64,000 nt of DNA from a phage: sequence record PZ386947.1, one strand, 5' to 3'. The notes under the pieces were generated by a model. The model had not been told where the DNA came from. It saw nothing but the letters and a program-made list of their open reading frames with translations, and searched no databases. Below are positions 9,862 through 37,659 of this stretch, one piece after another; position 1 is the first letter of the stretch; each line of letters starts with the position of its first letter. Both the position numbers and the translations under genes were made by a program.

Positions 9862-10332
9862 TTAATCATGTTTCCACACCCCATCGGTATTTGACCAAAG
9901 CCGCTGATTATCTGATCCTCTCCACAGCTTTTTGGTCGGAAGATTTTTCTCATACTTCCCATCAATAATAACATCAACATATTTAAGCATTTCTAGTTGT
10001 TTAATATCTTCAAACTTATATCCTGTCCACAACCAAATGCTTTTATTTGGATAAAGATTTTTTACTGTTTGAACAATGCAATGAATAACATCTCGATTAT
10101 CAGGATAGAGAGGGTCTCCTCCAGTTATAGTTAATCCTTCTATATAATCATTATTCAAACATTCAATTAATTGTTCTAGTGTTTCACCAGTAAATGGAAT
10201 ACCATTTCTAGCATTCCATGTTGATTTATTATAACACCCTTCGCATTTATGCAAACAACCTGTAACGAAAAGAACGGCCCTGCATCCAGGGCCGTTCACA
10301 AAATCGCAAGGATAAAATCTATCATAATTCAT
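9862..10332 (-). CDS. nrdG: anaerobic ribonucleotide reductase activating protein (radical SAM)
   Basis: 156 aa; CxxxCxxC-type cluster (GCLHKCEGCYN); directly downstream of nrdD. Confidence 0.9.
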   Translation of the reverse strand: MNYDRFYPCDFVNGPGCRAVLFVTGCLHKCEGCYNKSTWNARNGIPFTGETLEQLIECLNNDYIEGLTITGGDPLYPDNRDVIHCIVQTVKNLYPNKSIWLWTGYKFEDIKQLEMLKYVDVIIDGKYEKNLPTKKLWRGSDNQRLWSNTDGVWKHD

Positions 10333-12146
10333 TGGTGTTTAACCCTATGCATGATTTCTTTATTTTTACCGAGATTAAATCCGCGTTCGTTCGGATTTCC
10401 CAAATAACCACATGTTCTTCTTATTGTGTTCATCTTTTTAGGATCAGTTTCTCCACAAATAGAACAAACAAATCCGTTTTCAGTAGGAGTCATTTCATGG
10501 GTACTTCCACATGTAAAACATTTATCTACTGGCATATTAACACCAAAATAATCTAAATGTTGTGCAGCATAATCCCATACGGCCTCAAGACCCTTTAAGT
10601 TATTTTTCATATCAGGAAGTTCAACATAAGAAATGTGACCACCTGTCGCAATGAAATGATATGGCGCTTCACGAGAAATCTTTTCAAACGGAGTAATATT
10701 TTCTTCTACTGAAACGTGGAAACTGTTAGTGTACCAGCCTTTATCGGTAACATCTTTTACACTTCCATATTTTTCTGTATCAAGTTTACAGAAGCGATAA
10801 CAAAGGTTTTCAGCAGGAGTCGAATATAAACTAAAAGCAAATCCAGTTCTTTCAGTCCACTGTTTAAGATGAGCATTCATTTTAGTTAAAATTTCTTGTC
10901 CAATATCACGACCGACAAGAATATTCAATTCGTGAATACCAATGTATCCTAGGGACACTGAACTTCTACCGTTTTTAAATAACTCAATTATGTCGTCATC
11001 AGGTTTAAGACGAACCCCGAATGCACCTTCTTGGTAAAGAATAGGAGCAACAGTAGCTTTAACTCCTTTTAAGGAACTAATTCTACACATCAATGCTTCA
11101 AAACATAAATCCATTCGTTCATTGAACAATTCAACAAATTTCTGTTCATTGAATTGTGTTCCAATATAAGAATCTAACGCGATGCGAGGAAGATTCAATG
11201 TTACAACACCAAGATTATTACGTCCATCAAGAATTTCATTGCCAGTCGAATCTTTCCATACGCTCAAGAAACTACGGCATCCCATCGGAGAAACAGGAAC
11301 AGATGAACCAGTGATAGCTTTATTGTTCTTAGCCGAAATGATGTCAGGATACATTCTTTTGCTTGCGCACTCTAAAGCAAGCTGCTTAATATCATAGTTC
11401 GGGTCGTCTTTATAAAGATTAACACCTTCTTCAACGAACATAACAAGCTTAGGGAAAATAGGAGTTATCCCATCACGACCAAGACCTTTAATACGATTTT
11501 TCAGAATTGCTTTCTGAATCATTCGTTCAGTCCAGTCAGTTCCCGTACCAAATGTAATTGTTACAAAAGGCGTTTGTCCGTTTGAACTAAAGAGAGTATT
11601 TACTTCATATTCATAAGCTTGGAATGCATCGTATACGTCTTTTTCTGTTTTAGATTGAGCATAATTTAACGCATCAGCGATTTGCCATTTTTCTGCATCC
11701 TCAATATGTTTTGCATAGGTGCGTTTAACATAAGGAGAAAGTACTTTATCTACATTAGCAAAAGTCGTTCCGCCGTATTGATGGGAAGCAACCTGTGCAG
11801 TAATTTGTGCCATAATTGCAGTAGCAACACCGATTGATTTAGGAGTTTCAATCTGTGCATTACCAAGCTTAAATCCATTCTCAAGCATTCCTTTTAAATC
11901 TACTAAACAACAATTAGTAAATGGAAGAGCAGGGGAATAATCAATATCGTGGAAATGAATAATTCCGCTTTCATGCGCTTTCATAATAAAAGACGGGACC
12001 ATATTTTTGGCAATGTGTTTAGACACAATACCAGCCATAAGGTCCCGTTGAGTTGGAAAAACACGAGAATCTTTATTAGCATTCTCGTTTAAAAGGTCTT
12101 TATTAGTTTTATGAATCAATCCTTCAATTTCTTTTTCAATTGTCAT
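10329..12146 (-). CDS. nrdD: anaerobic ribonucleoside-triphosphate reductase, uninterrupted
   Basis: 605 aa; C-terminal glycyl radical motif RRTCGYLG and zinc ribbon CFTCG...CSICG; continuous ORF. Confidence 0.93.
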   Translation of the reverse strand: MTIEKEIEGLIHKTNKDLLNENANKDSRVFPTQRDLMAGIVSKHIAKNMVPSFIMKAHESGIIHFHDIDYSPALPFTNCCLVDLKGMLENGFKLGNAQIETPKSIGVATAIMAQITAQVASHQYGGTTFANVDKVLSPYVKRTYAKHIEDAEKWQIADALNYAQSKTEKDVYDAFQAYEYEVNTLFSSNGQTPFVTITFGTGTDWTERMIQKAILKNRIKGLGRDGITPIFPKLVMFVEEGVNLYKDDPNYDIKQLALECASKRMYPDIISAKNNKAITGSSVPVSPMGCRSFLSVWKDSTGNEILDGRNNLGVVTLNLPRIALDSYIGTQFNEQKFVELFNERMDLCFEALMCRISSLKGVKATVAPILYQEGAFGVRLKPDDDIIELFKNGRSSVSLGYIGIHELNILVGRDIGQEILTKMNAHLKQWTERTGFAFSLYSTPAENLCYRFCKLDTEKYGSVKDVTDKGWYTNSFHVSVEENITPFEKISREAPYHFIATGGHISYVELPDMKNNLKGLEAVWDYAAQHLDYFGVNMPVDKCFTCGSTHEMTPTENGFVCSICGETDPKKMNTIRRTCGYLGNPNERGFNLGKNKEIMHRVKHQ

Positions 12147-28916: not shown

Positions 28917-29378
28917 TCATTGAGTTTTAATTACTGCTTTAGAAGCCTTTCCTGGTAAACGACGACTGTTAATAATTGCCATCCTACATTGAAGTGACGG
29001 GTCTTTGAACTTCGCATTAGGTTTACAAACTGTAAATCCAAGCCAAAGATTTCCATCTGTGATTTCTAAACGTCCAGGACGGTATTCAACCCCATCAATA
29101 AAATCCTCGTCAATGTCAGGACGCGGAGGCATACTCAGGAATTCATTAACTTCTAAAACATGGTCTTTTATTTTGTGGAATAATTCAAAAACATATGTCT
29201 CATCAATCTCCCGTTGAATTGCACGATCAAGAAGATGCTGAGAATATTTTAGATGAAACGATGAGACCCCTGCTGCTTTTGATGCCTCACGAATCTCATT
29301 GTTAATTTGACGAAACTCCGACTCAAAGTGACGACGAAGCTTATTTCGACGGATAAAAACTTCTGTGTTGATAGTCAT
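28917..29378 (-). CDS. regB: endoribonuclease RegB
   Basis: 153 aa; matches recalled T4 RegB sequence (MTINTEVFIRRNKLRRHFESEF...) and length. Confidence 0.85.
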   Translation of the reverse strand: MTINTEVFIRRNKLRRHFESEFRQINNEIREASKAAGVSSFHLKYSQHLLDRAIQREIDETYVFELFHKIKDHVLEVNEFLSMPPRPDIDEDFIDGVEYRPGRLEITDGNLWLGFTVCKPNAKFKDPSLQCRMAIINSRRLPGKASKAVIKTQ

Positions 29379-29437: not shown

Positions 29438-29716
29438 TTATTCTTTAAATCTAATCAATTTATTCATAGACTTTGAAACTTCTGCACGGACCTCATGAAG
29501 GTTTTTGAGCTGTTCAAGACGTTGCTCATAGTAAGCAATTTCATCTTCTTCAAGACAGTCCTGTGAATCTTCTTTAAGATAACGTGCATAGTCCTGAAAA
29601 GCTTTACGGACTACTTCCTGGAAGTCATCAAGACTTTGAATTTTCTTAGGAGCAGCAGACACACGACGAGGGGCAGTATAATACTCATAACCAAACCCTG
29701 CGCTTAATTGAGCCAT
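29438..29716 (-). CDS. hypothetical protein
   Basis: ORF track 29438-29758 trimmed to [13 protein letters not shown]... Confidence 0.4.
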
Positions 29717-30018
29717 TAGTATTTTTCCTCTGGTTGGAACACAGCACGACAAGCCCACATACTGGCTTCTTTGAGTTTCGTTTTAGCAATAGCTAAATGA
29801 TCGAGGCTTTCAGCGTAATTCTTCGCGAGTTCAAAGTCTTCGCAATTATCTAGTGCTTCCCAGAATTCATCATATAAAGCATCAAAGATAAGTCCTAAAC
29901 GAACTTCAGCGTCTTTAATAGCATTTACTTTACCGATTTTTTCGTCGGTATGTGGCTTATAACCTTTAATATCTTCAATCATATTTGACTTCCTCACCAG
30001 TACATAAATCGTATTCAA
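29716..30018 (-). CDS. hypothetical protein (100 aa)
   Basis: ORF track. Confidence 0.5.
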
Positions 30019-30196
30019 CTAAACGAATAGGTTCATGAATGCCATATCCTTGAACAGAAATTTCTGTCGTAGGATAAATTCCATTAATATCACCCATGTT
30101 CCATGCTTCGTTAAATTGCTGTTCGCCTGAATTACTAAACCACTCGGCGAAAGCATTTAGCACATCTTCAGAACCTTCAATAATTATCTTTGCCAT
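29975..30196 (-). CDS. hypothetical protein (73 aa)
   Basis: ORF track. Confidence 0.45.
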   Translation of the reverse strand: MAKIIIEGSEDVLNAFAEWFSNSGEQQFNEAWNMGDINGIYPTTEISVQGYGIHEPIRLVEYDLCTGEEVKYD

Positions 30197-30558
30197 TACA
30201 AACTCTCGGTGAAGGTACGAGCGATAACGTCGCGCTGCTGTTCCGGAGTCAGAGAGTTAAAGCGAACTGCATAACCGGATACACGGATGGTCAGCTGCGG
30301 ATATTTTTCCGGATGCTTAACTGCATCTTCCAGAGTTTCACGACGCAGAACGTTAACGTTCAGGTGTTGACCACCTTCAATTTTAACTGTAGGCTGTTGC
30401 TCAATTTCAATTTCACGGGCATGCAAACCATAGAAAATTTCTGGGTCTACAAAAGAGTCCTCTTTAAAGGTTTTAGAGACAATAATTCGTGCTTGAATAC
30501 CATCTTCAAAATAAATAGTACCTTTATGTGTGCCTTCAAGAATTTGATATGCTTTCAT
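30196..30558 (-). CDS. autonomous glycyl radical cofactor (GrcA/YfiD-like)
   Basis: 120 aa; C-terminal ~75 aa essentially identical to recalled E. coli GrcA ([60 protein letters not shown]). Confidence 0.85.
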
Positions 30559-30564
30559 ATAACC

Positions 30565-30891
30565 TCAATTAGAAAATAAATTTATCCAAGATTGTTCTTT
30601 AATTAAAAATGGCTCAGAATCATATGCCATTAAACTCTGTGTGATTAGTCCTTTAAAAGGCCCATCAATAAATTCCATGGTAAAATATGGAATTTTATTC
30701 ATTAGCCGTGCATTAGGAGCCGTGCACAAAACTCTGCATCCTTTGAATACGCCTTTTTGTAATTTGTATTGCTTGGGATAAAATTCGCTCAAAATGTTAT
30801 TTTTTGCCAAAATTTCAAAATGATTCACCAATTTATTTTTAATAGTTTTTGGCGAAAAATAAAGATATTCGAAAAGCTGAGTGTCTGTCAT
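30565..30891 (-). CDS. hypothetical protein
   Basis: ORF track 30565-30945 trimmed to MTDTQLFEY... Confidence 0.4.
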   Translation of the reverse strand: MTDTQLFEYLYFSPKTIKNKLVNHFEILAKNNILSEFYPKQYKLQKGVFKGCRVLCTAPNARLMNKIPYFTMEFIDGPFKGLITQSLMAYDSEPFLIKEQSWINLFSN

Positions 30892-31478
30892 CATTGCATT
30901 CCGATTACGAAAAACTGTGGACGAGTAATACCACCAATGCAACATTTAATATTACAGCAGCAGTGTACAGTGTCAATATGGACACTATAAATCTTATCCA
31001 TATCAGGAGATTTGACAGGCTCATCAATTATATACAAAATTCGCGAAAGCGATAAACCTCTGAACTTGCTTCCTTTATTACCAATAAAACTGCGCACAGA
31101 ATCAGTAAATAAACGAAAACGTATATCATCATTAGAATAACGCGAAAATTCCTTTTTAATATTATCTGCGGAAATTTTAGCGTAAGCTGAAGTATTAGAA
31201 AGAACAATAACTGTTCCACCGTCATACAACCAATTAGCGGCAAAATTAGTTACTGCAGTTGATTTACCAGATTGACGCCCACCATCTAGTCGAAGTGTAC
31301 AATACTGTTTAAGTAAGTCTTCAAATGGCGGGATATATTCGTTTTTACAAATTTCTTCTACTCTAGCATCAGAATGGTGTGTAAAAGCATTCATCAGGGA
31401 TAGATAAGGACCAGTTAAAAATGTTCTCATTTTGTTCTCTCTAGGTTTGGGCCATTCCATGGCGCATGAATTGTCCAT
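30891..31478 (-). CDS. small P-loop NTPase-like protein
   Basis: 195 aa; Walker A GGRQSGKST, Walker B-like ILYIIDEP; start may be internal (MRTFLTGPY). Confidence 0.45.
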   Translation of the reverse strand: MDNSCAMEWPKPRENKMRTFLTGPYLSLMNAFTHHSDARVEEICKNEYIPPFEDLLKQYCTLRLDGGRQSGKSTAVTNFAANWLYDGGTVIVLSNTSAYAKISADNIKKEFSRYSNDDIRFRLFTDSVRSFIGNKGSKFRGLSLSRILYIIDEPVKSPDMDKIYSVHIDTVHCCCNIKCCIGGITRPQFFVIGMQ

Positions 31479-31575: not shown

Positions 31576-31992
31576 TTAAATGTAAATATTTTTGCCGTAA
31601 TACTTATACCAGTGTGGCTTCATTAAAATTTTTTCATCGAGTCGTTGTTGACTCAACTTAATAGCTGATTTGCATGGATTATAATCATTTTTCCATTCTA
31701 CTGGAATATCGCTGATGTCAGGAACTTCAGTATCTTTTATACTGAACCCGCGTTTTAAGCATTCCGTTATAATGTCCGATTGACGCTTTCGCAAAAATTC
31801 TAACTTATCGTAAAAGAAAGTAACATGACCAGAACCTAAAATAAATTTAGAAGATATTTTAAAATCTTTAACGCGCTTACCGTTTGCCACATGCTTACGA
31901 ACTATACCAAAAACACGCGGCAATTCACGGTATTCTGCGATTAAATGTTGATCAGCAAGTTCAGATACTAAAGTCAAATTAATACGAGTCAT
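31576..31992 (-). CDS. denV: endonuclease V (pyrimidine dimer DNA glycosylase)
   Basis: 138 aa; [29 protein letters not shown]... matches recalled T4 endo V with substitutions. Confidence 0.9.
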
Positions 31993-32051: not shown

Positions 32052-32582
<531 letters not shown>

Positions 32583-37479: not shown

Positions 37480-37555
37480 TGGTCGAGGCAGTAGGGATCG
37501 AACCTACGACCTAGGACTTAGAAGGTCCTTGCTCTTCCTTCTGAGCTATGCCCCG
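37480..37555 (-). tRNA. tRNA-Arg (anticodon UCU)
   Basis: hand-folded cloverleaf: 7 bp acceptor stem, T-arm GTAGG-TTCGATC-CCTAC, anticodon loop CTTCTAA, encoded CCA. Confidence 0.85.
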
Positions 37556-37659
37556 TAATTGGGGTGACCGATGGGAGTCGAACCACCCGAGTCGCAATGA
37601 CAATGGATTTACAGTCCACACCGCTACCTCTACGGGATAACTCCCCTTAATTCTTAATT
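37556..37659 (-). ncRNA. tRNA-like element of uncertain identity (degenerate tRNA or stable small RNA)
   Basis: fills the gap between tRNA-Ile and tRNA-Arg; has GGTTCGACTCC T-loop-like motif, acceptor-like 3' end ending CCCCA, and a hairpin with GUA in a 7 nt loop, but no canonical cloverleaf. Confidence 0.3.

Follow-up and report, generated by a model that had tools for sequence, protein, structure and literature searches.

Host grcA sequence in the 3′ half of the T4-type phage gene vs.6: probable gene conversion, apparently on more than one occasion

Gene vs.6 of the Tequatrovirus (T4-type) genome segment analysed here (64,000 nt of sequence record PZ386947.1, referred to as "the window") is very likely an old phage gene, the 3′ half of which has been replaced with host grcA sequence by gene conversion, and apparently more than once, as judged from the sequence patterns in this and related phages. 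The gene encodes the phage autonomous glycyl radical cofactor (Y06I), a homolog of E. coli GrcA. A tract of 169 nt within it (gene nt 179–347, codons 60–116; window positions 30212–30380, minus strand) is 100% identical to nt 200–368 of E. coli grcA. By megablast, this tract gave the only match between an E. coli chromosome and the window, 64 kb from a phage that destroys the DNA of its host.

The vs.6 gene and its product

The vs.6 coding sequence (30196–30558; all protein-coding genes of the window described here are on the minus strand) is a 120-aa open reading frame (ORF) running from ATG to TAA, with a GAGG Shine-Dalgarno motif, read from the sequence, 4 nt before the ATG (30563–30566). 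The family phrog_1209 covers the full length of the protein (residues 1–120, E = 5.7e-63), the Pfam domain Gly_radical (PF01228) matches residues 60–101 (E = 2.5e-18), and E. coli GrcA (6OWR) is the best sequence match in the PDB. At the DNA level, the gene is 100% identical in phages Pinarejo and Lutter, and in T4 the identity is 98.6%; the protein shares 119 of its 120 residues with T4 GT7 vs.6. These matches confirmed an earlier note, made from the sequence without database searches, which had taken the ORF for a phage GrcA/YfiD homolog. The note was also right that, T4 Y06I being known, the gene was to be expected rather than new: by its sequence it is the already known Tequatrovirus vs.6, and its product is a stand-alone glycyl-radical domain of 14 kDa.

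The position of the gene is kept as well, in the order vs.7-vs.6-vs.5-vs.4 between regB (28917–29378) and denV (31576–31992). Upstream of vs.6 are a vs.7-like ORF (30565–30945; phrog_2049) and an ORF of 195 aa (30891–31478) that matches AAA_14 weakly, and the lysozyme gene e (32052–32546) lies beyond denV. When called from their first start codons, the vs.7-like and 195-aa ORFs overlap by 55 nt; the true start of vs.7 is probably an internal Met, since the phrog_2049 match begins at residue 18. Downstream of vs.6 is vs.5 (29975–30196; 73 aa; phrog_1986), whose ATG overlaps the vs.6 stop codon (TAATG), followed by vs.4 (29716–30018; 100 aa), an Acb2/Tad1-family gene with a hairpin domain (Pfam PF24729, E = 2.3e-20). 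The family of vs.4, two genes downstream of vs.6, is a known family of anti-CBASS cyclic-nucleotide sponges. A promoter and terminator scan around vs.6 found nothing above shuffled expectation.

The vs.6 product is small and stands alone, being in essence just the C-terminal glycyl-radical domain of pyruvate formate-lyase (PFL), with residues 58–120 aligned to PflB 697–759. The RVSGYAV motif with the radical glycine is present, and the longer context RVSGYAVRF, to which the earlier note had drawn attention, occupies residues 92–100. The radical glycine, Gly95 (codon at 30274–30276), corresponds to Gly102 of E. coli GrcA and, according to published work (PMC8683613), its counterpart in PflB is Gly734. 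The N-terminus differs from that of E. coli GrcA, as had also been noted: residues 1–21 could not be aligned, and the rest of the N-terminal part is diverged, yet homologous to GrcA, as indicated by the 74/100 identities found by BLASTP over residues 22–120. The extent of the C-terminal match, put at about 75 residues in the same note, was overstated. It is the last 60 residues (61–120) that are 100% identical to E. coli GrcA; residue 60 is I in vs.6 and V in GrcA, and only 5/14 of the residues immediately before the identical block match. Scored against the NCBIfam equivalog model TIGR04365, which has a cut-off of 170 bits, the vs.6 protein reached 154.9 bits (residues 20–120), compared to 233.9 bits for E. 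coli GrcA and 121.9 bits for T5-like Gostya9. This shortfall is explained by the diverged N-terminus of the vs.6 protein, which thus belongs, among the autonomous glycyl radical cofactors (IPR011140), to a subfamily of phages rather than to the bacterial equivalog.

The two "spare part" proteins with biochemical validation are T4 Y06I and E. coli YfiD/GrcA, both of which receive their glycyl radical from the PFL-activating enzyme (PflA; Wagner et al. 2001, as summarised in PMC8683613). The radical-bearing proteins then bind PFL that has been cleaved by O2 at Gly734, and activity is restored (PMC8683613). The vs.6 protein described here would act like GrcA, a mechanism borrowed from the published work on the T4 protein, to which it is 119/120 identical. 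Host PflA would place the radical on the conserved glycine, and the activated protein would dock on O2-cleaved host PFL (Gly734), restoring its activity. In this way, vs.6 presumably sustains the fermentative energy metabolism of the infected cell under micro-oxic conditions. The earlier note had paired the gene with an intact anaerobic nrdD/nrdG system. Both genes are indeed intact in the window (NrdD, 10329–12146; NrdG, 9862–10332), ≈18 kb from vs.6. The link is only a thematic one, through anaerobic glycyl-radical chemistry, since the published activase of Y06I (PMC8683613) is the host PFL-activating enzyme and not NrdG.

The host-identical tract and its flanks

Base-by-base alignment with E. 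coli grcA placed the tract between a phage-specific, AT-rich 5′ half of the gene (codons 1–59 and the first base of codon 60; 30381–30558) and a phage-type 3′ tail (the third base of codon 116 and codons 117–120, ending the protein in FTESL; 30199–30211). In the 43 nt 5′ of the tract, 22 positions are unlike E. coli grcA (≈50% nucleotide identity). The 13 nt of the 3′ tail contain five synonymous differences, and past the vs.6 stop codon this alignment showed no similarity to the grcA region. From gene nt 179 to 363, identity to grcA was 97.3% in all 5426 of 5426 complete E. coli genomes, with no match upstream. GC and GC3 are 0.50 and 0.46 in the 3′ part of vs.6 and 0.34 and 0.20 in the 5′ part, compared to 0.48 and 0.43 in E. 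coli grcA and a GC of 0.35 for the whole window. The gene thus has two features by which a conversion tract is recognized: a long run of identity (169/169) between flanks that are diverged on both sides (22/43 and 5/13), and a composition that is donor-like inside and recipient-like outside. The protein sequence encoded by the 5′ half is conserved among T4-like phages and is unlike the bacterial N-terminus.

Besides vs.6, megablast against E. coli assemblies matched just one other segment of the window, 37530–37652 (≈123 nt), in the tRNA cluster. This segment is 84% identical to tRNA-Tyr/Thr/Asn genes on E. coli plasmids of ≈110 kb, and was matched in 212 genomes, never on chromosomes. These plasmids are probably phage-plasmids with related tRNA genes.

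The gene as a whole appears to be long established in these phages. In the comparison of six T4-like genomes by Nolan et al. (PMC1524935), it was among the small number of ORFs present in all six, and it lies in the same gene neighbourhood in Karam-, Jiaoda- and Slopekvirus. The conserved vs.7-vs.6-vs.5-vs.4 context, together with the phage-specific AT-rich 5′ half, argues that the gene is old and was not recently acquired; since only the 3′ half is host sequence, it is best described as a conversion tract and not as a capture. A recent capture of the whole of E. coli grcA, with the N-terminus diverging afterwards, would also account for a 3′ half that is 97.3% identical to grcA with a host-like GC content, and for an N-terminal part that is still detectably GrcA-homologous at the protein level. 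However, the 5′ half, with its GC3 of 0.20 and ≈50% nucleotide identity beside the tract, is too diverged for this while the 169 adjacent nucleotides are identical, and distant T4-like genera share the N-terminus and the neighbourhood without having E. coli-like 3′ halves. Furthermore, none of the 753 phage records matching E. coli grcA spans ≥80% of that gene, and, among the matches listed for these records, the start always falls sharply at grcA nt 199–202. On these grounds (a sharp 5′ border, a 5′ half of phage type, conserved synteny), whole-gene capture is very improbable and was ruled out.

Phage homologs that have not undergone conversion served as a control for protein-level constraint. 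Over 183 nt of the C-terminal region, ≈100 phage homologs were set against 161 host alleles drawn from metagenomes and from genomes in GTDB. The homologs of T5-like phages (Tequintavirus/Epseptimavirus) and of Krisch-, Karam- and Slopekvirus are small proteins like vs.6 and share its invariant C-terminal motif, but they lack a host-identical tract of the kind found here, and their composition fits their own flanks. Their best host matches were 129–158 of the 183 nt (70–86%), with exact runs of ≈20–35 nt, whereas the E. coli T-even phages matched host grcA at 175–182 of 183 nt. At the divergence of the unconverted alleles, the probability of 169 straight identities is 2e-10 to 1e-15. The much lower similarity of the unconverted homologs to the host, together with this small probability, excludes protein constraint alone as the cause of the identity and implies the presence of recent host-derived DNA.

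The same data bear on the idea that there was no recent exchange, and that extreme purifying selection and codon-usage convergence in a highly expressed gene produced the match. The C-terminal 60 residues do in fact hardly vary across all of the phage and host homologs. However, RB49, T5-like Gostya9, Slopekvirus and YI837 differ from host grcA at 16–30% of positions, nearly all synonymous, while having the same or nearly the same C-terminus in the same host (RB49 and Gostya9) or in related hosts (Slopekvirus and YI837), and at that divergence 169 straight identities have P ≤ 2e-10. The five synonymous differences in the last 13 nt also indicate that synonymous sites are free to vary. Constraint or codon convergence, which we consider extremely unlikely, was therefore ruled out by the unconverted phage homologs. 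The earlier note had left the choice between recent acquisition from the host and strong constraint, and proposed a nucleotide-level comparison in which an identity to host grcA no higher than that of an ancient conserved phage gene would speak against recent transfer. In that comparison, the identity lay far above the level of an old phage gene. Recent host DNA is thus present in the 3′ half, while neither the acquisition of the whole gene nor constraint alone was upheld.

The C-terminal domain is otherwise invariant except at two variable sites, residues 77 and 81 (RRETL[E/L]DAV[K/E]HPEKY). In converted phages, these residues follow the host, being E..K in E. coli and its T-even phages and L..E in Klebsiella-type hosts and Jiaodavirus. 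Among unconverted phages there are exceptions, with L..E in RB49 (E. coli) and E..K in Enterobacter phage YI837.

Sequence identity by itself does not give the direction of transfer, and the 3′ half of E. coli (and Klebsiella) grcA could conceivably have come from a phage. However, both GC and GC3 of the tract are those of the host and not of the phage. The E. coli grcA gene is syntenic, as ung-grcA-eamB, across the Enterobacteriaceae, and its 3′ half is 88–93% identical to that of Citrobacter and other Enterobacteriaceae, as vertical descent predicts; the tract is present in this context in 5426/5426 E. coli genomes. In addition, divergence is far higher in phage alleles that belong to neither the T-even nor the Jiaodavirus group. 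The host composition of the tract and the conserved, syntenic E. coli gene with its usual divergence thus argue for transfer from host to phage, and leave hardly any likelihood for the reverse.

Probable recurrence among phages and the ends of the tract

With regard to mechanism, we infer from the sequence patterns that homologous recombination with chromosomal grcA would have overwritten the 3′ half of vs.6. Recombination in T4 can proceed with homology of no more than tens of base pairs, and the phage is well known to rescue markers from DNA that contains cytosine. The 5′ border of the tract would sit where nucleotide homology between phage and host ends, so that independent events would be expected to share that border.

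The synonymous divergence between Tequatrovirus and Mosigvirus alleles is 0.31–0.37 in codons 1–59, compared to 0–0.12 in codons 60–115 (Fisher p from 3e-5 to 0.03 for the contrast between tract and flank), indicating that the tract is younger than the split between these two genera. In the last five codons, there are at least eight haplotypes among 16 alleles, and some of the patterns are discontinuous. At one extreme, the 3′ end is fully phage-type (UFV-AREG1); this window, L091 and T4 are intermediate, in that order, and at the other extreme OES_C-2 is E. coli-type but for one difference. Phage OES_C-2 (Tequatrovirus, L171; vs.6 at 129–485) has the most host-like allele, with 182/183 nt in the C-terminal region. 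Two codons immediately before the tract border are also deleted from its vs.6 (EIEIE to EIE), leaving an annotated CDS of 357 nt. Within the tract, phage variants coincide with host polymorphisms at three sites (14T, 38C, 101A/T). The shared variants point to different donors in a way that is suggestive but not significant; as proof of multiple donors they were set aside, three shared sites being too few.

The clearest sign of repeated conversion comes from the Klebsiella phages of the genus Jiaodavirus, in which the sequences point to a Klebsiella-type donor. Their vs.6 3′ halves have 56% GC, compared to 38% in the flanks, and match Klebsiella-type grcA from metagenome contigs (L181/L179) at 170–173 of 183 nt, with exact runs of 68–140 nt. 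The 5′ border of the Jiaodavirus tract is the same as in the E. coli phages, and a phage-type tail has again been kept. L181 is a bacterial chromosomal locus, and its upstream intergenic region aligns best with Klebsiella/Raoultella loci. Among the GTDB species representatives, no host exceeded 88.5% identity to the Jiaodavirus sequence, and the close allele came only from the metagenome scan. The longest exact match to the Klebsiella-type grcA allele (140 nt) is in the 3′ part of vs.6 in a Jiaodavirus-like contig (L116, IMG/VR UViG_2974754850; vs.6 at 301–659). The gene in this contig has a frameshift around codon 43, and may be a pseudogene or reflect a sequencing error.

A simpler history, with a single host-to-phage conversion, phage-to-phage spread within the Tequatro- and Mosigviruses and later erosion of the 3′ end, would mean that conversion is not ongoing. 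All of the E. coli T-even alleles have the same 5′ border, T-even phages recombine readily among themselves, and crosses between phages could yield the mosaic tails. On the other hand, the shared border is expected in any case because homology ends there, and the Jiaodavirus tract is a separate one, with the same border and a different, Klebsiella-type donor. Several of the within-tract phage variants (14T, 38C, 101A/T) equal segregating host alleles, and the discontinuous patterns, such as OES_C-2 compared to T4, need several events of some kind. A single conversion is thus unlikely, though it retains appreciably more probability than the other alternatives considered above, and conversion on more than one occasion remains our preferred reading.

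Conversion does not track every host of isolation, and is thus too slow to keep up with each of them. No phage was ≥90% identical to Salmonella grcA, the best phage identity being 80–90%, and phages isolated on Salmonella, Yersinia and Hafnia carry the E. coli-type tract. A set of IMG/VR "viral" contigs (L119 and L160–L170) was considered as a source of intermediates and set aside, since these contain bacterial full-length grcA (MITGIQITKA...) or the 3′ end of pflB rather than a gene of the phage vs.6 type; fragments of bacterial DNA or the flanks of prophages have probably entered the viral collection here. A metagenome contig (L211, OHAV01008836.1; grcA at ≈301–681) has an E. coli-like full-length grcA in which an internal segment encodes the PflB-type sequence VMNREMLLDAMENPEKY; the gene has a 101-nt exact run in common with pflB C-termini. 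Either pflB has converted grcA within one genome or the assembly is chimeric; a real conversion would suggest that the glycyl-radical domain recombines among its paralogs as well.

The 3′ end of the tract lies close to the start of the next gene. The vs.5 ATG overlaps the vs.6 stop codon, placing the vs.5 translation-initiation region inside the vs.6 tail, and this tail has a GAGAG sequence 6 nt upstream of the vs.5 ATG that is probably the Shine-Dalgarno sequence of vs.5. The G of the GAG codon is kept in 15/16 T-even alleles, even between E. coli-like flanking sites; T4 itself has GAA in place of GAG at that codon. The tract would stop short of the last five codons because of the overlap with the vs.5 translation-initiation region, and it is plausible that selection on the vs.5 ribosome-binding site limits the 3′ end of the tract.

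The 3′ half of vs.6 may, with about an even chance, be a standing interface for recombination, at which strictly lytic, host-DNA-degrading phages of the T-even type repeatedly copy the grcA allele of their bacteria, from E. coli in Tequatro- and Mosigvirus and from Klebsiella in Jiaodavirus. Once gained, a perfect homology of 170 bp would favour further conversion. If such an interface exists, vs.6 would be a natural and easily sequenced reporter of the rate of host-to-lytic-phage recombination and of recent host history, and conversion may keep the phage spare part matched to the PflB and PflA of the host.

Comparison with known systems

For T4, both the gene and what its product does biochemically are textbook knowledge. 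No description of a host tract in vs.6 at the nucleotide level was found in the literature searched, the coverage of which leaves out key older T4 literature, and the recurrent host-to-lytic-phage conversion is possibly an unreported example. The vs.6 tract offers a concrete case of homologous recombination from host to lytic phage in enterobacterial T4-like phages.

T4 Y06I is the product of the same gene in the same place between vs.7 and vs.5, and T4 also has a host-identical tract. The exact match in T4 is 178 nt, compared to 169 nt here, where the 3′ end lies 9 nt earlier. The sole residue difference from T4 GT7 vs.6 is at position 54, which is Q here and P in T4. E. coli GrcA/YfiD is likewise a stand-alone glycyl-radical domain, and its last 60 residues and 169 nt of its gene are identical to those of the phage gene. 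The vs.6 protein is 7 residues shorter than E. coli GrcA, and residues 22–59 are only about one-third identical.

In cyanophages, psbA and psbD are reportedly mosaics of phage and host segments formed by recombination with the host copy, as put forward by Sullivan and co-workers in 2006. Like these, vs.6 is a host-derived auxiliary metabolic gene of T4-like phages that has become mosaic through recombination with the host. Unlike psbA and psbD, it has an enterobacterial host, and the copied segment is short (≈170 nt), essentially perfect and has a fixed 5′ border. The phages that carry it also differ from those of the psbA/psbD case in being hydroxymethyl-cytosine T-evens that degrade host DNA.
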